IMG/VR virus record: IMGVR_UViG_2537561934_000018
DNA length: 9,822 bases
Reading direction: 5' to 3' (one strand)
DNA from: a virus
Lineage: Duplodnaviria > Heunggongvirae > Uroviricota > Caudoviricetes
Notes under the pieces: generated by a model
Seen by the model: the letters and a program-made list of their open reading frames with translations, nothing else
Database searches by the model: none
Told to the model about the DNA's origin: nothing
Translations under genes and position numbers: made by a program
In this document: positions 1 to 9,822 of the stretch, piece after piece
How the letters are laid out: each line of letters begins with the position of its first letter
Position numbering within the stretch: the first letter of the stretch is position 1

Positions 1-960
1 TTACTCCTTGTTCATTGCGTACAGCCCATTAACCAGAGCAAACTGTGGCACCCCGTCCGCGATGAAAGTCGCATTAACTCCGCAGGCTTCGCGGATAGCG
101 GGTGCCACAATCTCCGCCCCGCCACCGACAACCATCACCCGCCCGTAACCCGAAAAAACCGCCAGCGCGCGGATCACGCGTTGTTTCAGTGTTTCTTCCT
201 TTTCACGAATAACCGCCATCAGGCTGGCGTAATGCGCGTCATTGTGGATGTGCTGGCGCAGCCAGGCTTCATCATGGCGATGTTCGATAATGGTATTGGC
301 GATGTGGTGACTGGTGCGCATACCGTTAGTGGCCATCACCGACAGTACGGCATCGGCCATCAGAGAAACGCCTACGTGTGGATCGCAAAACACCTGGCTG
401 ATACCTGCCAGTTGCCCCTGAACCTTTGCCACATCCAGCGTGGTTCCGCCCAAATCCACAATCAGCAGGGATTCAAACGGACTCATGTCAGCCAGTGCCT
501 TAAAGCCAGCCGGAATGGATTCAGGCATAACCCGCACGTTACGGATAGTGAATGCTTCGCCGTTCTGGTACTCCACCGGGCGCATAACGTTCGCTTTTTT
601 GCGGTTGATGTTGGCCATGTCCGGCTGTGCGTTTGTGTCGAAATATTCGCTCAGTGGCAGGGTGACAACCACATCCACTTCCTGTGGTGTGATGCCTGAT
701 TTGACCAGCGCGTGATGAATGGCAATTACATTCACATCGCTGTACTGGTATTGCGTGTCGGTCGTCTGGACAAAGCGATCGCTGACCGGATCAAAACCAT
801 AGCGCACGCCATCAAGCATGTAGTTCGCGGGCTGCGTGCCACCGAACGGCGCAGACCATTCCGACTTGAAGCTGTTTGGGCTGATGGCGTTGCGGCGTTC
901 GCCGTTCTCAGTCCATGCCAGCTTGATGTTGGTGGAGCCGTCATCGATACAAATTTTCAT
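1..960 (-). CDS. ParM/StbA-family actin-like ATPase (319 aa), complete ORF
   Basis: ORF track 1..960; stop TAA is the reverse complement of 1-3 and ATG is at 960-958, preceded by an AAGGAAAAG Shine-Dalgarno. N-terminal IDDGSTNIK motif plus DLGGTT and VVGGGA motifs are typical of actin-fold ATPases. The N-terminal ~110 aa closely resemble plasmid R1 ParM (StbA) as I recall it. The start overlaps the last 20 nt of the upstream A gene. Confidence 0.8.
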   Translation of the reverse strand: MKICIDDGSTNIKLAWTENGERRNAISPNSFKSEWSAPFGGTQPANYMLDGVRYGFDPVSDRFVQTTDTQYQYSDVNVIAIHHALVKSGITPQEVDVVVTLPLSEYFDTNAQPDMANINRKKANVMRPVEYQNGEAFTIRNVRVMPESIPAGFKALADMSPFESLLIVDLGGTTLDVAKVQGQLAGISQVFCDPHVGVSLMADAVLSVMATNGMRTSHHIANTIIEHRHDEAWLRQHIHNDAHYASLMAVIREKEETLKQRVIRALAVFSGYGRVMVVGGGAEIVAPAIREACGVNATFIADGVPQFALVNGLYAMNKE

Positions 961-3859
961 GTCGCTTTTCCTTATGTTGATTAATTAATCGTTTACGGGA
1001 TTCTGAAATCCCGTTTTTGTCCTGTTTTATGCGCGCTTCATATATCGCGGCGCGTTTTTGCTCATTTACGGGATTTGTGAATCCCGTTTCTGTCTGTTTT
1101 TTGTTTCCACTGGTCAGGCCACCCCGCAGCAGGTCTGCTTTGCGGCGGGCGCGTTCAGTGGTTTCACTGATTCTCTGTGCGTGCTCTGCGTCGCGGATGG
1201 CGCGCAGCATGTCAGAAAGCACGGTAACGGGTGTTTTCATGGTGTTCTGGTCTTGCTGAAGTGTGGATGCCAGGCGTGCGGCGGCTTCGGGGTCTGATGT
1301 CCCCAGCTGTTCCAGATAGCTGGCGACCGGGTTATGGCGGATCTCCGTACTGCTTACGCCGTGGTTACGGCTCAGGCGCTGCCAGAGCTGCGTGATCCGG
1401 CTGTCCGGTCGGGTATCCGGTTTGCGTACAATTTCAAATCCCTGCGGTGCAATGTTGCTGCCGTCAACGTACAGACTGCCGCCCCGTAACAGGTGCTGCA
1501 TCTGCTGTTCACCGATATGCAGGCCGAGAGATTCAGCAGACTCCCGCCATTCTTTAGCGAGTAGTTCGTGGTTATCAGGCAAAGGCCGCTGCTGTTTGCG
1601 GCTCTGTGTCCAGCTCTGCATTTCATCACGGCTGTTTTTTGCCTGTTTGTCACGAAGCGAACGCATCAGCGCCCGGCGTTCGTGCCGTTTCAGTGAGCGC
1701 ATCCATTCGTTCACTTCAACGCCGTCAGGGAGCTGCGGCCACGGTGCTGGCCGTTCTTCCGGCTGTTCTGTCCCGTTGTTGTCCGTTTCCTGTACACGGG
1801 GACAGTTATTGCCACGAGTCCAAGGGGCGGCAGGGCCGCCCTGAAGGTCAAAACCATTTTCGCGGGCGCTGTCTTCCGCTTCCGGTTTACGTCTTACCAG
1901 CTTCCAGTTATCCGGATGCGTGCACACGCGGGAAGACTCCCCGATGAGCGGCGACCAGATCCCGTAAATCTGTACGCTCTGTTCGCCGTAATCGTTCAGC
2001 CCATCTGCGAGGTCGTAGGCGGTGCGAATCAGGTAGTCTTTGCGTGGAACAAGTACGCCGCCCTGTTTCTCTATGTAGGTGGCAAAACATCCGGCATCAG
2101 CGGCAGCGAGTACCGCATCCATTGCGTCATCCTTCAGCCGTTGCGGGCCTTCCGGGTTGCGTGCCATCTGGCTGGCAAGGCGGCGCAGCTCACGCCACAC
2201 TTGACGGGAGGGGATGCCAAAGAACTGGAACTGGCGGACGCGGTGAAGGCGTGCCCAGCCGATGGCGCGCTCCACGCTCTCGGCCATTGATTTTCCGGTT
2301 TCGTGGTCAACGCGTGGCTTGCCCGTTTTCGGGTCGATGCCATCCACGGCGTGGCTGTCCAGGTTCTTTCCGATGTAGGTGGCGATGTAGCTGGTTGGCG
2401 TGCCTTTTGAGCCGTCGACGTACTCCGCCTTAAAGCGCGGAGTAATATCATTGCCCAGTTCGTGGCGGTCTTCCTGAATGGCAATATCGCGGGTGTGGGA
2501 CACAATGGTGTCGATTTCTTCCGGATGAGCAAAGACCATCATATGCCAGTGCACGGTGCCGTCATGGTGAGGCTCCACCGTGCGGATGCCATACCAGCGC
2601 AGGCCGTCGCGGTTCAGTTTTTTGCGGACCGCCGCAAAAAACGTGTTAACCAGGTAATCGCTGGAGTCGCGCATGGTGGCCCCGTTCCATTTGGGATTCG
2701 GATGACCGTTCTCTGTTGTGGCGTGGTATTTTGACGGGCAGGTGACAGTCAGAAACACCGCTTTGTCGCCACGGGCTTCGGCCAGAAGTTCCAGTCCCTT
2801 CATGGTGGCCGTCATTTCTGCCTTACGGTGAACCGGGTTACTTACTCCCGCGTAATACACCGTCTCGAGATCAATCGTGAACCCGTCTTCATTTTCCAGC
2901 ATGAAACTTTTCAGGAAATCGCGTGTTTTCTCGCGCTGTGCGCGAAACTCGCTTAACGCGTCCTGGCTCAGATAGGGTGATGTTTTTCTGGAAACCAGAC
3001 AGGCGGCGCGGAGTTGTTCTTCCCGCCACTCACAACGTAACAGCCACAGTTTGCGTTTCCACCAGTCCGCACAGGTCAGGCGAAGGATTGCGCCCGGCAG
3101 CAGTTCCGTGTCCGGTTCGTTCCTCCGGTCTTTGTCTGTTGTCAGTGCGTCATAATGTGGAGGCATGGCGTGCAGGTGTAACGCCATGCGGGCCAGCATC
3201 TGATACGCCTTCAGCGTTACATCCATGGTCAGCTCGCCATCTCTGGCACCGAAACCATCACAGAGAGTCTCAAAGGTGCTGCTGAACATTGCCGCCGTCA
3301 TGGTGGCCAGCGTCTGTATCTGGTGCTTGTTAAGCTGCGGCAGGTAAAGCAAATCGTCCAGGCGTTCGCGTCCGGCAAGGGCGCGATAACCCGGTGTCAG
3401 CCAGCGGCTGTCGGTGCGCTCCAGACGTTCGAATATTTTGCGCAGGGTTCCGTGCGCGTAGCGTTCTGCCTGCCAGCTCTTTTTGCCTTTCCGGCGATCG
3501 ACTTCCTGTTTTTTGCGCAGGAAAGAGAGGTGGCGAATAAGCGGATCGCGCAGATAGGACGGCAGCAGGCGCAGCGAGGCCATGGCTTCATCCACCGCGC
3601 CGCGTGCCTGTTTTCTGGCGTCTCCTGCCAGTGTGATGGTTTTGTCCTGTTTTTCCTGTGCGTCCAGGCTTTTATTAATCAGGTTGCCCAGCGGCGTGGC
3701 GGAGAACGCCGCATCAGCCATTTCCTGGCGGCGCTCGTTCTCTGCCCGGTAGGCATCCAGCCAGGAGGAAAGCGCGGATTCAGGAGCGGGGATCCCCGTT
3801 CCTTCACGCCCCACTGCGTGGCGCGGTTGTTGCCAGTCCCTGATGTACTCCGTTGACAT
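941..3859 (-). CDS. P2 gpA-family rolling-circle replication initiator (HUH endonuclease), 972 aa
   Basis: ORF track 941..3859; ATG at 3859-3857 with a GGAG about 10 nt upstream. HUH-type motif HWHMMVF is encoded at 2531-2551 and the paired-tyrosine motif YIATY at 2375-2389 (verified by reverse-complementing the DNA). This matches the two-tyrosine active site described for phage P2 A protein. Position immediately downstream of the cox-side early genes is as in P2. Confidence 0.8.
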   Translation of the reverse strand: MSTEYIRDWQQPRHAVGREGTGIPAPESALSSWLDAYRAENERRQEMADAAFSATPLGNLINKSLDAQEKQDKTITLAGDARKQARGAVDEAMASLRLLPSYLRDPLIRHLSFLRKKQEVDRRKGKKSWQAERYAHGTLRKIFERLERTDSRWLTPGYRALAGRERLDDLLYLPQLNKHQIQTLATMTAAMFSSTFETLCDGFGARDGELTMDVTLKAYQMLARMALHLHAMPPHYDALTTDKDRRNEPDTELLPGAILRLTCADWWKRKLWLLRCEWREEQLRAACLVSRKTSPYLSQDALSEFRAQREKTRDFLKSFMLENEDGFTIDLETVYYAGVSNPVHRKAEMTATMKGLELLAEARGDKAVFLTVTCPSKYHATTENGHPNPKWNGATMRDSSDYLVNTFFAAVRKKLNRDGLRWYGIRTVEPHHDGTVHWHMMVFAHPEEIDTIVSHTRDIAIQEDRHELGNDITPRFKAEYVDGSKGTPTSYIATYIGKNLDSHAVDGIDPKTGKPRVDHETGKSMAESVERAIGWARLHRVRQFQFFGIPSRQVWRELRRLASQMARNPEGPQRLKDDAMDAVLAAADAGCFATYIEKQGGVLVPRKDYLIRTAYDLADGLNDYGEQSVQIYGIWSPLIGESSRVCTHPDNWKLVRRKPEAEDSARENGFDLQGGPAAPWTRGNNCPRVQETDNNGTEQPEERPAPWPQLPDGVEVNEWMRSLKRHERRALMRSLRDKQAKNSRDEMQSWTQSRKQQRPLPDNHELLAKEWRESAESLGLHIGEQQMQHLLRGGSLYVDGSNIAPQGFEIVRKPDTRPDSRITQLWQRLSRNHGVSSTEIRHNPVASYLEQLGTSDPEAAARLASTLQQDQNTMKTPVTVLSDMLRAIRDAEHAQRISETTERARRKADLLRGGLTSGNKKQTETGFTNPVNEQKRAAIYEARIKQDKNGISESRKRLINQHKEKRHENLYR
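995..1087. repeat. Tandem pair of perfect 8-bp-stem palindromes (ACGGGATT-N4-AATCCCGT) 73 bp apart, flanking a GC-rich palindrome, each followed by a T-run on the + strand
   Basis: Hairpin 1 is 995-1014 (loop CTGA) followed by TTTT to 1018; hairpin 2 is 1068-1087 (loop TGTG) followed by TTTCTGTCTGTTTTTT. Flanking sequence is about 85 percent identical over ~38 bp. A GC-rich palindrome at 1031-1054 is followed by TTTTT (1055-1059). All lie inside the last ~55 codons of the A ORF and 35-130 bp upstream of the ParM-like start. Confidence 0.6.
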
Positions 3860-3865
3860 GCTGAC

Positions 3866-4231
3866 TTACTCCGCTTTGCCGCTCAGTGCGGCGTGGCAGA
3901 CGGCAGCCAGCCGCTGAATTTCCAGCACGGTGTCTTCTGTGTCGGCATGGCGATGTGTGATGCGGGTGCTGTCGGCAATCACATCGACGATTGCAGAGGA
4001 TGGGCGCTGGTAAATGCCAATAACGGACGGGGTGCCACCTTCAATGCGGTAAAGCCTGTAATTTCCCTCGTGGCTGTCAATCATGTAACGACCATCAATA
4101 ACAATCTTTCCGTCAGCGAGCTGCGGTACAGGCAGGGATTTCAGGTACATGTCATAACGATCACGCACGCGAGCGGCAAGATCACGCTCTGTGTTGAGCA
4201 GGTATTCAAGAAAGTCGTTGGCGAGAATCAT
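3866..4231 (-). CDS. Hypothetical protein, 121 aa, immediately upstream of the A gene
   Basis: ORF track 3866..4231; ATG at 4231-4229 with an AGAGGA Shine-Dalgarno ~9 nt upstream. Its stop TAA (3868-3866) lies 7 nt before the A start. Balanced amino-acid composition, unlike the antisense + strand ORF 3893..4396. No motif recognised. Confidence 0.5.
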   Translation of the reverse strand: MILANDFLEYLLNTERDLAARVRDRYDMYLKSLPVPQLADGKIVIDGRYMIDSHEGNYRLYRIEGGTPSVIGIYQRPSSAIVDVIADSTRITHRHADTEDTVLEIQRLAAVCHAALSGKAE

Positions 4232-4303
4232 TGCGGCAATCCTCTTGTTACAGATGTGCGAAGGCCTCCCGCCGCAAGGTGCAGGAAAGGCCTGGTACCG
4301 GAA

Positions 4304-4534
4304 TTAATGGAGTTTGTTTTGCTGCTGGATGAGATCCTGAAGAGACAGGAGGTCTTCCGCCAGATAGCTGAATACAGCGGCGCAGTAGTCGGCTGAAATA
4401 GTGCTGTTGAGTCTGTGCAATGTGTTGGATTGCATGATAAAGGCGATGTGTGCAGCGCGGGTGAGTCTGCGATCGATTTCAGTCTGGATGTGACGACGTG
4501 CAGCGTATGCGCGCTGTTGTTTGCGGTTTGCCAT
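4304..4534 (-). CDS. Hypothetical small protein, 76 aa
   Basis: ORF track 4304..4534; ATG at 4534-4532 with an AGAGG about 9 nt upstream. The Shine-Dalgarno region is part of an 11-bp inverted repeat (see repeat 4544..4635). No motif recognised; coding status uncertain. Confidence 0.4.
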   Translation of the reverse strand: MANRKQQRAYAARRHIQTEIDRRLTRAAHIAFIMQSNTLHRLNSTISADYCAAVFSYLAEDLLSLQDLIQQQNKLH

Positions 4535-4543
4535 GGTGTGGCC

Positions 4544-4635
4544 TCTGTAGTTGCAAGTTTTGAAAACTCACCATCCAGAGGTGGAAAACTCGGGGCGGTG
4601 AGACGTACAGGGTTTCCACAACCGGCAACTACAGA
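4544..4635. repeat. 11-bp perfect inverted repeat (TCTGTAGTTGC at 4544-4554 and GCAACTACAGA at 4625-4635), with a third 9-bp copy CTGTAGTTG at 4740-4748
   Basis: Read directly from the sequence. The proximal arm abuts the Shine-Dalgarno of the 76-aa ORF and the third copy lies inside the loop of the terminator hairpin at 4721-4755. A GC-rich stem-loop with a UUCG loop on the - strand RNA (4640-4659) sits next to the distal arm. Confidence 0.55.
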
Positions 4636-4713
4636 ACCCGGCCCGACCGAAGTCGGCCCCATACGCCCCACCATAATTCTGACGCGAAAAAGACGTGGCG
4701 ATACAGTACGCAC

Positions 4714-4755
4714 AAAAAAACCGCTGGCGCGGTTGTGCGCTGTAGTTGTCAGCGG
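4714..4755 (-). terminator. Candidate rho-independent terminator for the SPFH cassette transcript
   Basis: On the - strand the sequence reads CCGCTG...CAGCGG (4755-4750 and 4726-4721), with an inner ACCGC-GCCA-GCGGT hairpin (4733-4720), followed by seven T (4720-4714). Confidence 0.5.
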
Positions 4756-4870
4756 GGTGGAAATCCCGGCACCCGTTTTATGAGGTGCAGCGGAAATGTA
4801 ACCTGACTGATTGCGGCATGGCAAGCGGTTTTTTTGTGAGAACGGCATACTAAAAAATCCTGATACTGCT

Positions 4871-4901: not shown

Positions 4902-5732
4902 TTACTTCACGGGAACGAACGGAACAGCGGTGTTACTGGTCATGTATTGCGGCAGCGTGCCGTTCCATTTGTTGATCGCTTCCAGCTCCATAACGCCGGG
5001 ATTCTGGCGCAGAGCTTCGCCGCGTAAACGAATGGCGTCGGCTTCAGCCTGGGCTTTTGTGCGAATGGCATCGGCCTGTCCGGCAGCTTCTGCGCGCAGC
5101 ATGTTGGCTTCAGCTTCGCGTTGCTTGACTTCCTGTTCACGTTGCAGGGTTTTCTGGTTTGCCGTGACTTTGGCGTTAATGCTGTCGATAACGGTTGGCG
5201 GATATTCCGGTTTACCGACATAAGAGAGGCTCATGACCTGAATGCCGATGGGGGTCATCTCTTCCTGAATATCTTTAAGTGCTGAATCCAGCAGTTCAGA
5301 CTTACCACCGTCGATAAACTTATCGGTGGTCATTTTGCTGGCCAGTCGGTTGAGTGCATCGGCGATCTTCTGGCGCAGGTCAGTGTCGGTAATGTCATCC
5401 ACGCCTTTGCGGTAGGTCTGAAACACTGTGGTAACTTTGGATGGATCAACCTTGTAGGCCACACCGATGTGATAGCCGATGGTTGTGCCGTCACTCATCT
5501 GGAAGCTGAACGGCTCATCGTAGGTCTTCATTTGTTTGAAGGTCGGGAAGATGTAAACCTCTGTATTCCAGCCTGTCCAGTAGCGGCCAACGCCAACCAC
5601 TTCACCGACTCCTTTGTCGTCGCCCAGTTTGTTGACTTTGATGCCCACATTACCTGGCTCAACGCGATCGCAACCAACCAGCAGGATGGCGGCAAAAAGC
5701 GGGATAATCTGAAAGAGTCTGAATTTCTTCAT
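4902..5732 (-). CDS. SPFH/Band-7 (stomatin/prohibitin/HflKC-like) domain lipoprotein, 276 aa
   Basis: ORF track 4902..5732; ATG at 5732-5730 overlaps the upstream stop (ATGA), with an AAGGAA Shine-Dalgarno. The N-terminus MKKFRLFQIIPLFAAILLVGC is a lipoprotein signal with lipobox LVGC, followed by Asp at +2. The central region resembles an SPFH domain and the C-terminus is the Ala/Glu/Arg-rich coiled-coil tail typical of HflK/HflC and prohibitins. Fold assignment is by eye. Confidence 0.65.
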   Translation of the reverse strand: MKKFRLFQIIPLFAAILLVGCDRVEPGNVGIKVNKLGDDKGVGEVVGVGRYWTGWNTEVYIFPTFKQMKTYDEPFSFQMSDGTTIGYHIGVAYKVDPSKVTTVFQTYRKGVDDITDTDLRQKIADALNRLASKMTTDKFIDGGKSELLDSALKDIQEEMTPIGIQVMSLSYVGKPEYPPTVIDSINAKVTANQKTLQREQEVKQREAEANMLRAEAAGQADAIRTKAQAEADAIRLRGEALRQNPGVMELEAINKWNGTLPQYMTSNTAVPFVPVK

Positions 5733-5932
5733 TGTTTGATTTCCTTGATGTACTTACTGAAAAGGCGAACAACGCCTGCCGGGTACAGCATGGCAATGAA
5801 AATGCCCAGCAATACCAGGAAGGAGCTGTCTGATGAAATCATTCGGGGGAGTAGTCCTGCATACAGAATGAGAGAAATGAGGACGCATACCAGCGCCCAC
5901 ATGTATGCGCGAAACCAGGTCTTTTTGTTCAT
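5729..5932 (-). CDS. Small membrane protein with two predicted transmembrane helices, 67 aa
   Basis: ORF track 5729..5932; ATG at 5932-5930 overlaps the upstream stop (ATGA) and its own stop overlaps the SPFH start. Two hydrophobic stretches (roughly residues 8-28 and 38-58) are separated by a short polar loop. Confidence 0.6.
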   Translation of the reverse strand: MNKKTWFRAYMWALVCVLISLILYAGLLPRMISSDSSFLVLLGIFIAMLYPAGVVRLFSKYIKEIKQ

Positions 5933-6147
5933 GTTGATTGCTCTCTTTTGTTATTCAGGAAAAAGTCAAAAACGTTATCGATGCGCATCATGAGTTCGCG
6001 CTGCATCGCTTCTGGTGTTTCCGGTTCGCCAGGCGACCCCAGCGTTGCGCAGAAATCAGCGATCTCGTGTTGAATGAGTTCTTTCAGCGTCGGTAAGGAA
6101 TTCATGTGTGTGCGGCGATGCTTGCGTGTGATTCGCCTTCTGCTCAT
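5929..6147 (-). CDS. Hypothetical protein with basic N-terminus, 72 aa
   Basis: ORF track 5929..6147; ATG at 6147-6145 overlaps the upstream stop (ATGA) and has an AGGAG Shine-Dalgarno 8 nt upstream. An internal Met-15 start has no Shine-Dalgarno. N-terminus is Arg/Lys-rich (MSRRRITRKHRRTH). Confidence 0.55.
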   Translation of the reverse strand: MSRRRITRKHRRTHMNSLPTLKELIQHEIADFCATLGSPGEPETPEAMQRELMMRIDNVFDFFLNNKREQST

Positions 6148-6373: not shown

Positions 6374-6784
6374 CTATGCGTTAAATACGGTGTGTTGGGC
6401 GTCATCAATGAATGCGACTTGAGAGCGCTCTATCAGGTGGAGATTTGTCAGAAGCGCTGATTCCCTTATGGGGTAAGGAGTGATCAGGTATTTGTCCTGT
6501 AATCCGGCGATAATGGTGTATCGCTGTGGCTCTGAGCCAATTGTGTAAATAAGGCGTCCGGTGTTAGATAAATCCAGTCCGGTGACTGGTTGAGTTTTGA
6601 AAAGCGTAAGTTCCGCACCCTGTTCTTCGATGATTTTGGCGGCTTCTGCCGTGACTTTTGCAACTATCATTGTGTGGGTAGCGACGTCTATATGATTATT
6701 TGCTACGGCTTTTTTCGCCACTTCGCTTTCCATCTTTGAAATTTCTTTCAGTGCTCTGATAATACCTTCTTCTTTTGCGTTCAT
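6374..6784 (-). CDS. Hypothetical protein, 136 aa (first gene after an AT-rich gap)
   Basis: ORF track 6374..6784; ATG at 6784-6782 with a GGAG Shine-Dalgarno 8 nt upstream. It is preceded by a ~92-bp AT-rich intergenic gap (6785-6876). No motif recognised. Confidence 0.6.
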   Translation of the reverse strand: MNAKEEGIIRALKEISKMESEVAKKAVANNHIDVATHTMIVAKVTAEAAKIIEEQGAELTLFKTQPVTGLDLSNTGRLIYTIGSEPQRYTIIAGLQDKYLITPYPIRESALLTNLHLIERSQVAFIDDAQHTVFNA

Positions 6785-6876
6785 TTTATATCTCCGTTAT
6801 TTACGTGTGCGAATACCTCCGCGCATGCGGATTGTTTTCACGTTTTCTTATTTAACCTGATGTTTTATTTGTATGG

Positions 6877-6990
6877 TTATTCACCAGTGAAAAAACGTTC
6901 GATCTTTTTTACTGAATGAATAATTCGCATAATCCCAATGGCGCAGGCCACCGAAATAATCATAACAAGCCATGAGATAAATATACTCAT
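6877..6990 (-). CDS. Small hydrophobic peptide, 37 aa (MSIFISWLVMIISVACAIGIMRIIHSVKKIERFFTGE); not in the supplied ORF track
   Basis: Hand translation of the - strand: ATG at 6990-6988 overlaps the TGA stop of the 80-aa gene (ATGA at 6990-6987), with a GGGGAA Shine-Dalgarno-like sequence upstream and stop TAA at 6879-6877. One predicted transmembrane helix followed by a charged tail. Confidence 0.35.
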   Translation of the reverse strand: MSIFISWLVMIISVACAIGIMRIIHSVKKIERFFTGE

Positions 6991-7229
6991 GCGATATTCC
7001 CCAGCTTATACGGTTCAATATGTTCCCCGCATTCTGCGGCGCAGATAAGCTCAGAAAGTTCGTTAAGTGCATCCAGATCATCAGCGTAAAAAGCCACGTC
7101 ATACAGACTCCGGATTGCCCTGGTCAATGAGTCACGGGCTGCACGTTCAGCATGAGTGCCTGATGCACTTAAGCGAAAATAAAAACGCTCAAGTGCTTTG
7201 TTAATGAGAGTTTTATATTCTTTGCCCAT
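6987..7229 (-). CDS. Hypothetical early-operon protein, 80 aa
   Basis: ORF track 6987..7229; ATG at 7229-7227, 11 nt after the upstream stop, with an AGGGTG Shine-Dalgarno. No motif recognised. Confidence 0.5.
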   Translation of the reverse strand: MGKEYKTLINKALERFYFRLSASGTHAERAARDSLTRAIRSLYDVAFYADDLDALNELSELICAAECGEHIEPYKLGNIA

Positions 7230-7240
7230 CGCAACACCCT

Positions 7241-7528
7241 TTAATCTGCTTTCTGGATTTCAGCTTCTGAATCCATACAAATAATTTCGATATAGGGTTC
7301 ATCGCCATGAACCTGGTGTGCCTTTTCAGCTTCGCTAATGATTTCTCGTACGGTCTGGTACGGAAGTTCCACAAGCAGTCGCGTACCGTTCAGATAAACG
7401 TAAGTGGCTTCGTCGGCTCCGTTTTTACCCGCCGGAGTCACTCCATCAATAGCGGATGCACGTAATAACAGTTCACCGCGAAAATCAATAAAACGGATAA
7501 ATACACCTTGTGCATGGTCTTTAGTCAT
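7241..7528 (-). CDS. Hypothetical early-operon protein, 95 aa (start trimmed from track ORF 7241..7588)
   Basis: Internal ATG at 7528-7526 lies 8-9 nt after the upstream stop (7541-7539) and is preceded by an AGGTG Shine-Dalgarno. The longer track ORF would overlap the upstream gene by ~50 nt. Confidence 0.5.
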   Translation of the reverse strand: MTKDHAQGVFIRFIDFRGELLLRASAIDGVTPAGKNGADEATYVYLNGTRLLVELPYQTVREIISEAEKAHQVHGDEPYIEIICMDSEAEIQKAD

Positions 7529-7538
7529 AAAGCACCTG

Positions 7539-7889
7539 TTATAAATCAGCCTGTTTAATAAAACTTTGCCCGCGAAGCAGACGATCAACCGTGCGTAGTG
7601 CTTCGTATAATGTGAAATCCTGTCCGAACTGATTGTCGCCGCTGCTCAGGGCAAAAATGCGGCTTCCGGTAAACGGATTACGCGGGCATTTGTGGACCAC
7701 GATTCCAGCTTTCTCAATCAGCCAGGCGTGTTCGCCGATTTGTTTTACGGGGTAGCCATCCGGCGTTGCGTGTGTTTCGCTCAGGCTGTAGCGAGAGCTG
7801 CTACGTGATGCGCTGGTAGCGAAACGGTTGGCATGGCGTTCCGCCCCGTTGCGGAAGCGCTGTTGTGAAGAATTGCGCTGTTCCTTCAT
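7539..7889 (-). CDS. Hypothetical early-operon protein, 116 aa
   Basis: ORF track 7539..7889; ATG at 7889-7887, 37 nt after the Cox-like stop, with GGAG upstream. No motif recognised. Confidence 0.5.
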   Translation of the reverse strand: MKEQRNSSQQRFRNGAERHANRFATSASRSSSRYSLSETHATPDGYPVKQIGEHAWLIEKAGIVVHKCPRNPFTGSRIFALSSGDNQFGQDFTLYEALRTVDRLLRGQSFIKQADL

Positions 7890-7926: not shown

Positions 7927-8352
7927 TTATGCTGCTTTACCGCTGATGTTTCTGTTTCGTCTGCCACTTGTTGGCTTAAACAAAAACAGACGGTTTTCCC
8001 AGTCGTGCCATTCCTGAGGTGCGTTTTCGATGAGGCGATCGCATGCTTCATCCCACGCTTTTCTGTTGATGTAGAGTTCAGCGTTTCCGCCTGGTTTGAG
8101 AGGGTCCGCCATATACACCGCAGGTAGCTTTCCTGCTTTGGCCATGCTTACGATGGCGTCAACGGTCTTTCCGATATACATCGCAAATCCTTCTTTTGAC
8201 AGGAGATGCGAGGGATTTTCTGAAAGTCGAATTTCTTCACGTTCACGTGCTTTGCGTCCTGTTTTTTGATGCTCACCTTCTGGCATTTCTGACAGGTGAT
8301 CGCATCGTGTTCCGCAAAGTGACTCAGGCGCGTTTTGAGTGCTTTCTTGCAT
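7927..8352 (-). CDS. cox: Cox-like excisionase/transcriptional regulator (P2 Cox family); start uncertain
   Basis: The C-terminal ~85 aa (GFAMYIGKTVDAIVSMAKAGKLPAVYMADP...) resemble P2 Cox as I recall it. It is the first gene transcribed divergently from the C repressor. Start chosen at ATG 8352-8350 because of a GGAGG Shine-Dalgarno 7 nt upstream. The track ORF extends to a GTG at 8391, and an ATG at 8181 with an AAGGA Shine-Dalgarno would give an 84-aa product closer to P2 Cox in length. Confidence 0.55.
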   Translation of the reverse strand: MQESTQNAPESLCGTRCDHLSEMPEGEHQKTGRKAREREEIRLSENPSHLLSKEGFAMYIGKTVDAIVSMAKAGKLPAVYMADPLKPGGNAELYINRKAWDEACDRLIENAPQEWHDWENRLFLFKPTSGRRNRNISGKAA

Positions 8353-8466: not shown

Positions 8467-8760
8467 ATGGACATTCCTCAAAAAATTCGCGTCATGCGCA
8501 AATCTGAAGATCTCACTCAGCGGGAATTCGCTGATATGATTGGAATTTCTTATTCTGCTCTGACCAGTTATGAGTATGGTCGTAACCTTCCTGGCCTTGA
8601 GATCACTATCAAGCTTTTCAAGCACCCGAGATTTTCTAAATACCGCGACTGGTTTCTGTTTGATGAAGTTGAACCCAAGGCCGGGCAGGTTGTACCGGCT
8701 CTCGCACACATTGGGCAAGGCGAAGCGGAATCATCCCGCTCCGGCAAGAAGACTGGTTAA
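8467..8760 (+). CDS. C: P2 C-type immunity repressor, 97 aa
   Basis: Start trimmed from track ORF 8395..8760 to ATG 8467, which has a GGAG Shine-Dalgarno 8 nt upstream. The protein (MDIPQKIRVMRKSEDLTQREFADMIGISYSALTSYEYGRN...PALAHIGQGEAESSRSGKKTG) resembles P2 C repressor along its whole length as I recall it. It sits directly upstream of, and co-oriented with, the integrase. Confidence 0.85.
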   Translation: MDIPQKIRVMRKSEDLTQREFADMIGISYSALTSYEYGRNLPGLEITIKLFKHPRFSKYRDWFLFDEVEPKAGQVVPALAHIGQGEAESSRSGKKTG

Positions 8761-8826: not shown

Positions 8827-9822
8827 ATGTCGATTAAGAAGCTCGCTAATGGCAAATTCTGTGTGGACGTGCGGCCAGCTGGATCAGAAGGAAAAAGATT
8901 CAGGCGGCGATTTGATACTCGTGGTGAGGCTGTTTTGTATGAGCGTCATGTATTGCAGCATTACCACGACAAAGACTGGGTTGATAAGCCAACAGAACGG
9001 CGCTCGCTGAGGGAGTTGCTGGATTGTTGGTGGCTATACCACGGGAAAAATCATCCTTACGGTGCGATGGAGCGAGTGCGTATTTCTGCGGTCATTAGTG
9101 ATCTTGAAAGTATTAATGTTACACGCAGCGACCAACTTACTCGTAAGAACATAATTAATTATCGGTTATTGTTGCTTAACCGCGGAATAAAACAATCCAC
9201 GGTTAATCGTTATTGCGCAATGATGAGTGGTTTCTTCACAAAACTAATTGACGCAGAGGAATATTCTGGGGCTAATCCGTTTCATGATGTGAAAAAACTT
9301 AATATCAAACAGCCTGAAATGGCTTATTTGTATCATGAAGATATTCCACGATTACTGGAGTTGTTATCTGGTGATGAATTAAAAGCTGTCTTGTTGTGTC
9401 TGGCAACAGGTGGAAGATGGAGTGAGGTTGCAAATATCAAGGGGGAGCATGTTATTAGCGGCAAAGTCATTTTTATGGAAACCAAAAATGGGAAGCGTCG
9501 CGTTATACCTATATCGTCAGAACTGGAGTGCATGATTAAAACAAAGGCCACTGGTCGTTTAATTTATCCAAGTTATGCCGCTGTCAGAGCTGCTATCAGA
9601 AAGGTGAGGCCCGATCTTCCTGAAGGGCAGTCAATACATGTTTTACGGCATACCTTTGCCACTCACTTCATGATTAATGGTGGGAATATCATCACTTTGC
9701 AGAGAATACTTGGGCATAGCACTATTCAGCAGACGATGACTTATGCCCATTTTGCACCGGATTATCTGCAGGATGCTGTGCGCTTTAATCCTGTGGCTGA
9801 GTTGTCCAGATATTGCCCATAA
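8827..9822 (+). CDS. int: Tyrosine integrase, P2 Int family, 331 aa
   Basis: Start trimmed from track ORF 8791..9822 (GTG) to ATG 8827, which has a GGAGGG Shine-Dalgarno 7 nt upstream. The N-terminus MSIKKLANGKFCVDVRP and the C-terminal catalytic region (TGGRWSE, HVLRHTFATHFMINGG, LGHSTIQQTMTYAHF, i.e. the R, H-x-x-R and Y motifs) closely resemble P2 Int as I recall it. Stop TAA is at 9820-9822, the end of the window. Confidence 0.9.
   Translation: MSIKKLANGKFCVDVRPAGSEGKRFRRRFDTRGEAVLYERHVLQHYHDKDWVDKPTERRSLRELLDCWWLYHGKNHPYGAMERVRISAVISDLESINVTRSDQLTRKNIINYRLLLLNRGIKQSTVNRYCAMMSGFFTKLIDAEEYSGANPFHDVKKLNIKQPEMAYLYHEDIPRLLELLSGDELKAVLLCLATGGRWSEVANIKGEHVISGKVIFMETKNGKRRVIPISSELECMIKTKATGRLIYPSYAAVRAAIRKVRPDLPEGQSIHVLRHTFATHFMINGGNIITLQRILGHSTIQQTMTYAHFAPDYLQDAVRFNPVAELSRYCP

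Follow-up and report, generated by a model that had tools for sequence, protein, structure and literature searches.

Does the 37-codon open reading frame (ORF) on the minus strand between positions 6877 and 6990 encode a protein and, if so, what might that protein do for the phage? An initial annotation of the 9,822-nucleotide stretch of viral DNA analyzed here (hereafter, the window) had described this ORF as an unannotated, translationally coupled hydrophobic peptide, and had likened its product to type I toxins, holin-like peptides and membrane-modulating phage peptides. The strand, the coordinates, the overlapping start and the hydrophobic stretch were all re-derived and found to be right. 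The ORF begins with an ATG at 6990-6988 and terminates with a TAA at 6877-6879, yielding the product MSIFISWLVMIISVACAIGIMRIIHSVKKIERFFTGE. Its start codon and the TGA stop codon of the preceding gene, an 80-aa DUF4754 gene (6987-7229, minus strand; full-length Pfam match, E 2e-54), share a single ATGA tetranucleotide (6987-6990), and a Shine-Dalgarno-like GGGGA motif (6998-7002, minus strand) is found 7 nt 5′ of the ATG. Since as many as 67 ATG-initiated ORFs of at least 30 aa were counted in the window, a 37-codon ORF is by itself unremarkable, and it is the comparative data that take this one beyond chance.

The diversity of the locus was drawn from IMG/VR loci and from exact-protein look-ups; a contig scan with DUF4754 as the single query returned two loci only. 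In 85 of 85 close loci (84 relatives plus the window), a DUF4754 gene of 80 codons was followed by the stop-overlapping ATG and the hydrophobic ORF, and across about 108 related loci the stop of DUF4754 was overlapped every time by the start of a small ORF with a single transmembrane (TM) segment. The ATGA and the ORF were likewise retained in every divergent subfamily examined, and no loss of frame was seen among homologues in the TM-encoding part. Comparison of synonymous and non-synonymous changes between canonical 37-codon alleles, a check proposed in the initial annotation, yielded a pN/pS of 0.28 in frame, against 1.8 and 1.1 for the two alternative frames, with DUF4754 standing at 0.06 in the same close-relative comparison. 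Codons 1-26 alone gave 0.35 in frame, as opposed to 1.5 and 0.84 out of frame, and the tail codons gave 0.20. Mean pairwise nucleotide diversity was 0.062 over the ORF and 0.24 over the 61 nt located 3′ of its stop. Between subfamilies, where pS was near saturation (0.4-0.86), pN amounted to 0.10-0.27 and the out-of-frame ratios ranged from about 0.6 to 6, most of them being 1 or above. The peptide retained approximately 57% identity in loci where DUF4754 was down to 26-31%; at this level of divergence, the DUF4754 protein no longer returned its recorded Pfam match and the start of the ORF still overlapped its stop. These substitution patterns show purifying selection on the sequence of the peptide, and with the frame intact in all close and divergent loci, the ORF is very probably a real membrane-protein gene. 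Phage 503458, considered as a candidate decayed copy, was set aside: its entire early region is riddled with indels, with gpA in three pieces, which probably reflects sequence quality.

The same loci speak to how the gene is translated. A purine-rich, Shine-Dalgarno-like run at -6 to -12 was retained across every subfamily, with AGGTGG, GAGGAG or GAGAGGG occupying the same spacing from the ATG in subfamilies other than that of the window, and with different DUF4754 codons and residues at that place. The operon contains three further ATGA junctions, at 6144-6147, 5929-5932 and 5729-5732. The architecture of translational coupling proposed for the pair is thus borne out by the conserved ATGA and the Shine-Dalgarno-like motif, from which we infer that the peptide is translated through coupling to DUF4754.

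The gene had not, however, escaped public annotation, as first believed. RefSeq holds exactly this frame as a hypothetical protein, under WP_000021673.1 (strain PEC41) and WP_000021655.1 (O157:H7 EC4115); the reference genome of phage P88 (NC_026014) lists it as SF19_gp07, "membrane protein" (YP_009113050.1); and its UniRef name is "Prophage membrane protein". P88 gp07 is the same gene, with a protein 97-100% identical, the same position, the same 4-nt overlap with DUF4754 and no differences. All of these records carry an automatic name only and no function, and no information on function came out of our literature searches on the peptide sequence, the accessions, DUF4754 and Xuanwuvirus. Some gene callers skip the ORF altogether, as in L104-L106 (Salmonella and some E. 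coli loci), from which an annotation lesson may be drawn: such a gene can still be missed.

The DNA surrounding the ORF was found in 1363 of 5426 complete E. coli genomes and the 114 nt of the ORF itself in at least 1076 of them, including O157:H7 and ST131. The exact peptide sequence belongs to a 183-member cluster. A homologue search, for which the natural 41-aa allele P0014 served as the query, returned 85 clusters at 90% identity, and a profile search run exhaustively against 1.84 billion representative proteins returned 17 representatives at 50% identity. The latter include the 41-aa subfamilies MSVFLSWVILIISVLMAIGIMRIIEALKNIESLFTGEERRK, MNILISWLILILAIICAVGIMRIINGIKTIESLFTGDKRHK and MNTLVSWLVLILAVLCAIGIMRVINALQNIKDLFTDEPRRK, two of the 41-aa subfamilies being present on about a thousand contigs each. 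In the Salmonella enterica prophage L104 (2740-2892) and in L105, an uncalled ORF of 50-53 aa beginning with MNCGIPVSVCFSWTVFALSIIAAIAIVRLWRAISKPDK starts with an ATGA on the DUF4754 stop; its TM segment is recognizably related to that of the window peptide, and its tail is unrelated and polar. Full-length similarity, together with a start on the DUF4754 stop in a P2-like early operon, places the window peptide in the P88 gp07 family which, with its 37- and 41-aa forms and the 50-aa Salmonella form, is restricted to P2-like prophages of Escherichia and Salmonella. No Pfam, PHROG, NCBIfam or PADLOC model matched the peptide at normal thresholds. At E values of up to 10, Pfam returned only DUF6007, DUF6095 and Nlp36 (E 0.13-0.28), all far below cut-offs, and PHROG only phrog_5315 and phrog_5620, which we regard as noise in both cases; a family profile found no match among PDB chains. 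Proteins of 103-128 aa that appear to fuse DUF4754 to the peptide were rejected as Rosetta-stone evidence, being frameshift artefacts mostly in the wrong frame (...HEYIYLMACSDYFGG...). The locus harbors a widespread gene of a narrow family, already catalogued but uncharacterized.

The predicted anatomy of the protein agrees with the single TM helix and charged tail initially assigned to it. Over residues 3-21, the 19-residue Kyte-Doolittle mean reaches 2.58, a strongly hydrophobic value, and AlphaFold2 predicted, from a 19-sequence alignment, one continuous helix spanning residues 2-34 (pLDDT 87). The predicted TM helix SIFISWLVMIISVACAIGIM corresponds to codons 2-21 (6928-6987, minus strand; mean Eisenberg hydrophobicity 0.81, moment 0.15). 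It runs into a predicted amphipathic, net positive juxtamembrane helix, RIIHSVKKIERFFTG, encoded by codons 22-36 (6883-6927, minus strand; muH 0.65), over which the hydrophobic moment ranges from 0.48 to 0.65 and the hydrophobic stripe is formed by I23/I24, V27, I30 and F34. Residues M1, S6, W7, A17, G19, I20, R/K22, I24, I30 and F34 are at least 92% conserved across subfamilies; within the 22-36 helix, conservation extends to R/K22, I24, K28, I30, E31, F34 and T35, and the tail motif K-x-I-E-x-[FL]-F-T-G-[ED] is common to the 37- and 41-aa subfamilies. The C-terminal flank carries a net charge of +1 to +3 and the N-terminus is uncharged which, by the positive-inside rule, points to an N-out/C-in topology with the 22-36 helix in the cytoplasm. 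A lipoprotein signal peptide was considered on account of S-V-A-C16, a sequence that is only loosely lipobox-like. Subfamilies have C, M or F at position 16 and A, V, I, L or F at position 15; since C16 is not conserved and there is no positive n-region, this possibility was excluded.

The length of the tail varies among alleles. Within the tail codons (6890-6910, minus strand), one-base losses in homopolymer runs of A6 (6905-6910) and T6 (6890-6895) give rise to alleles of 45, 34 and 30 aa in which the last 4-9 residues are replaced. Among 95 sampled loci, 83 were canonical, seven encoded the 45-aa, three the 34-aa and one the 30-aa form, and the remaining one was a low-quality record; altered tails (L037, L038, L063, L079, L080, L082 and L091-L094) thus account for about 12% of the sampled loci of the 37-aa type. 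The 34-aa allele is found on 388 contigs and one 45-aa cluster comprises 63 sequences, so that read errors alone do not account for these alleles, which are inherited. Residues 1-28 are kept in all of them. We read the altered tails as derived and possibly inactivated alleles of resident prophages; the recurrent losses may reflect decay, selection against the product or neutral change. Their wide occurrence indicates that the persistence of a prophage, at least, does not require the conserved tail.

The window corresponds to the early region of a P88-type P2-like prophage (genus Xuanwuvirus, Peduoviridae). On the plus strand lie the integrase gene (~8827-9822) and a helix-turn-helix (HTH) repressor gene (~8467-8760). 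Divergent from the repressor, the minus strand carries a cox-like gene (7927-8352), a DUF4761 gene (7539-7889), a gene encoding a 95-aa protein (7241-7528), DUF4754 and the peptide gene, which closes this first block of the early operon. No minus-strand terminator was found before the ORF within the early operon, and the genes are tightly packed; together with the divergent repressor/cox arrangement, this places the peptide gene in the early operon. The only promoter-like sequence near the ORF on the minus strand in a consensus scan was a weak 9/12 match inside DUF4754, at the level expected by chance. On the far side of the ORF, a 92-nt spacer is followed on the minus strand by genes of 136, 67, 72 and 67 aa and then by the SPFH gene (4902-5732). 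The placement originally given to the ORF, at the boundary between the early genes and an AT-rich gap preceding the SPFH cassette, holds as regards the edge of the conserved early module; however, four genes separate the ORF from SPFH and the "gap" is only the 92-nt spacer, which includes a conserved hairpin block. Further along the minus strand are two RNA genes within a non-coding stretch, a 76-aa "derepression" ORF, a gene of 121 aa, the gene of the replication endonuclease gpA (941-3859) and, directly 3′ of gpA, a ParM-type actin-like segregation gene (1-960).

The conserved non-coding block (6800-6846, minus strand) lies about 45 nt past the stop of the ORF. It reads GAAAACAATCCGC-N4-GCGGAGGTATTCGCACAC and contains the hairpin TCCGC-N4-GCGGA (6818-6831), the 4-nt loop of which varies and the stem of which is kept in essentially all subfamilies, with single stem-base differences in L088, L095 and L100. 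Homology to many E. coli relatives stops right past the block (query cover 1-497) and different cargo genes follow, so that the block marks the junction of the conserved early module with variable cargo genes. Read on the plus strand, it takes the form of a terminator-like hairpin (6804-6831) with a T-rich run; the sense strand has no such T-run. The tR1 terminators of P2 and 186 occupy an equivalent position in their early operons, and the block may represent a degenerate form of tR1, a boundary of recombination or a terminator that blocks antisense transcription.

Could translation of the ORF, rather than its product, be what matters, whether by protecting the transcript from Rho, by setting the state of the hairpin or in the manner of a leader, or could the ORF even be fortuitous? 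That a strongly conserved hairpin block follows the ORF at the module junction, that tail frameshifts are tolerated and that some gene callers skip the ORF would all fit. However, purifying selection operates at the level of amino acids and in this frame only, residues being conserved at saturating synonymous divergence; the stop codon, some 45 nt from the hairpin, is out of reach of a terminating ribosome; and the distance between the two shifts by 24 nt in the 45-aa alleles (45 or 21 nt). We consequently regard a functionless peptide as very improbable, and its specific version as a leader peptide or attenuator as ruled out by the hairpin distance and the amino-acid-level selection.

The antisense strand bears directly on the suggestion that the peptide is a type I toxin. 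Toxins of the Hok/Gef, Ldr, TisB, Fst and Ibs families are small and consist of a single TM helix with a charged C-terminal tail, and the size, single TM helix and charged tail of the peptide resemble those of Hok, Fst, TisB and Ldr-type toxins. As a membrane-damaging peptide of this kind, or of the holin/antiholin kind, it would oligomerize and dissipate the proton-motive force, resulting in host arrest or in the timing of lysis. The small-residue spacings S13-x3-A17 and A15-x3-G19, the latter with a conserved glycine, could support helix-helix packing, and the recurrent tail-disrupting alleles could reflect selection against a toxic product. Type I toxin genes differ from this locus, however, in having an antisense RNA or promoter and a dedicated 5′ untranslated region (UTR), neither of which was found for the peptide gene, which is operon-internal, coupled and devoid of a promoter or 5′ UTR of its own. 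A consensus scan of 6840-7100 found no promoter-like site on the plus strand, and no Rfam RNA matched the ORF region. Moreover, as the only terminator-like hairpin of the plus strand precedes the ORF on that strand, antisense transcripts reading in from that side would be expected to stop short of it. The search for an antisense RNA advocated in the initial annotation thus came out negative, on the basis of consensus scanning and Rfam, and the toxin assignment is not upheld by family searches either, with no toxin or holin match in Pfam even at E values of up to 10, and none in NCBIfam (toxins) or PADLOC. As to a holin, the lysis genes of P2-like phages are late genes whereas the peptide belongs to the early operon and not to a lysis cassette; neither Pfam nor PHROG returned a holin match; and no endolysin or spanin gene was found in the window, the neighbors of the ORF being cox, DUF4761, DUF4754 and cargo genes, all of which precede the replication gene A. 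Finally, the cytoplasmic helix is conserved in sequence, a requirement that pore-forming toxins generally do not have. Membrane damage is accordingly an improbable mode of action for the peptide.

The only promoter-like sequence found on the plus strand, TTGAAA-16-GATAAT (10/12) at 6736-6763, is antisense to the 136-aa gene and falls within the 5′ end of that gene. It is directed toward the start codon of the gene and toward the hairpin some 55 nt further, and could drive a ~70-nt antisense RNA over the ribosome-binding site of the 136-aa gene; it may equally be a chance match, as promoter-like sites numbered two in total against 1.6 expected.

Another reading is prompted by the position of the ORF next to variable DNA. 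Phage exclusion factors are commonly small inner-membrane proteins, and the peptide could be a superinfection-exclusion or lysogenic-conversion factor, produced in the lysogen or at an early stage of infection, that blocks DNA entry, a receptor or a transport function used by other phages. In keeping with such a role, the ORF borders a cargo region with moron-like genes (SPFH, ParE-like, MarR) and has a GC content of 35%, compared to 52% for the window. Yet it is part of the conserved early module and not of the exchangeable cargo, it has no PADLOC match, and it lacks a convincing promoter of its own, with the implication that it would be repressed along with the early operon in a lysogen. For these reasons an exclusion factor appears quite improbable to us.

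The cargo itself deserves description. In the window, the segment 4902-6347 (minus strand) consists of ATGA-chained genes for proteins of 67 aa, 72 aa and 67 aa, the last with two TM segments (phrog_1130, "membrane protein"), and for a 276-aa SPFH/Band 7 protein whose N-terminus, MKKFRLFQIIPLFAAILLVGC, looks like a lipoprotein signal. Phage P88 and a Salmonella prophage carry this cassette as well, but it is missing from many relatives, which identifies it as cargo; it matched no PADLOC defence model. The slot past the hairpin varies elsewhere (3596-3878 in L088-L090, 3694-5287 in L097 and 3672-4157 in L100-L103), and the genes found in those prophages encode a ParE-like toxin, a D12 methyltransferase with an Rv2179c-like exonuclease, MarR-type regulators and, on the opposite strand, a 161-aa protein. 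Such differences in gene content suggest that the slot is a moron or defence hotspot of Xuanwuvirus prophages.

Of the three kinds of product named at the outset, the loosest, a membrane-modulating phage peptide, remains the best reading. We favor an early, translationally coupled, N-out/C-in peptide that acts through specific protein contacts, and put the probability of this whole chain at roughly 55%. A transcript of the early operon, initiated between the repressor and cox, would include the peptide gene, and ribosomes terminating on DUF4754 would restart at the overlapping ATG with the help of the Shine-Dalgarno-like motif. The product would then insert into the inner membrane as a bitopic protein, its N-terminus, which is very short, remaining outside and its positive C-terminus inside, with residues 2-21 crossing the membrane and the amphipathic helix 22-36 lying at its cytoplasmic face. 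Early after induction or infection, the conserved faces of the helix would make specific protein-protein contacts in or at the inner membrane, and the peptide would not act through non-specific membrane damage. Its target could be a host membrane protein, such as a divisome component or a membrane protease, in the context of host takeover; alternatively or in addition, it could tether the co-translated DUF4754 protein to the membrane. That the action would be specific rather than generic is suggested by the conservation of S6, W7, A17, G19, R/K22, I24, I30 and F34 and of the IE..FTG motif. Against this explanation stand the absence of any homologue with a known function, the altered tails of about 12% of the loci, the unrelated tail of the Salmonella form and the lack of a counterpart of the peptide in P2 and 186.

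Precedents for a specific mode of action exist among small bitopic regulators. MgrB, AcrZ, MgtR, SidA/DidA and Blr are proteins of 30-50 aa with one TM helix that bind a larger membrane protein; regulators of the MgrB type display conserved residues on the helix, and are chromosomal and stress-regulated. The peptide resembles them in length, in its single TM helix and in its conserved helix residues, with no sequence relationship detected. It differs from them in being phage-encoded, early and coupled to a cytosolic protein predicted to be a three-helix bundle.

That partner, DUF4754, was modeled with a pLDDT of 91.6 as a bundle of three helices (3-22, 25-48 and 52-66) followed by an extended C-terminal tail in which P73 and Y74 are invariant. 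Structure searches with the model returned generic helical bundles only and no functional lead. In L097, a DUF4754 protein similar to that of the window is accompanied by a peptide of 41 aa, and the DUF4754 proteins of L100 and L102 differ although their peptide is shared. As judged from such sequence comparisons, the pairing of the two genes is positional and universal and the genes do not co-vary; their types have been reshuffled by recombination, and a co-adapted complex is thus not indicated.

An early-operon counterpart with a described effect on the host is provided by fil and dhr of phage 186, a small, overlapping and non-essential-looking pair found at the same position of a P2-like early operon, just 5′ of a hairpin/terminator. 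The annotation of the 186 record ascribes a block of cell division upon overexpression to fil, and inhibition of host DNA replication to dhr. The tR1 terminator of 186, like the hairpin block described above, stands between the first early block and the replication genes. By analogy of position, a role in host takeover is suggested for the peptide. The analogy is positional only, as there is no sequence similarity and Fil (75 aa) and Dhr (66 aa) have no strong TM segment, their maximum 19-residue hydropathy being 1.26 and 0.49, respectively; a scan of the early operons of P2 and 186 found no equivalent small hydrophobic ORF. A more elaborate version, which we consider speculative and unlikely in full, would make the peptide and DUF4754 the two parts of an immediate-early device for host takeover, tethered to the membrane. 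The 22-36 helix would dock onto the DUF4754 bundle to complete a four-helix bundle, and the assembly would inhibit the divisome, FtsH or the link between replication and the membrane. Were this to be the case, a functional counterpart of fil/dhr would reside in a prophage that roughly one E. coli strain in four carries.

Annotation of small membrane proteins is deficient, and targets are known for few of those encoded by phages. If the peptide of the favored reading binds a host membrane protein, it would represent a new phage-derived inhibitor or modulator and would provide DUF4754 with a function; if it has no measurable effect, it would be one more conserved accessory gene. At 37 aa, with clearly conserved residues, a wide distribution in E. 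coli and a defined early operon that would express it, it should be easy to study.

Two further modules of the window were noted. Between the SPFH gene and gpA, Rfam matches on the minus strand identify a C4 antisense RNA at 4591-4678 (RF01695, 76.8 bits) and isrK at 4714-4788 (RF01394, 63.6 bits); a mechanically called 206-aa ORF at 4228-4848 overlaps these RNA matches and was discarded as spurious. They are followed by the 76-aa ORF (4304-4534, minus strand), which is named "derepression protein" in relatives and matches Pfam PF25738. Together, these elements make up a c4/isrK anti-repressor module in the style of P1/P7, here within a P2-like prophage. At the other end of gpA, a "plasmid partitioning/stability" gene adjoins the ParM-type gene in relatives, amounting to a partition system in a P2-like prophage that integrates.
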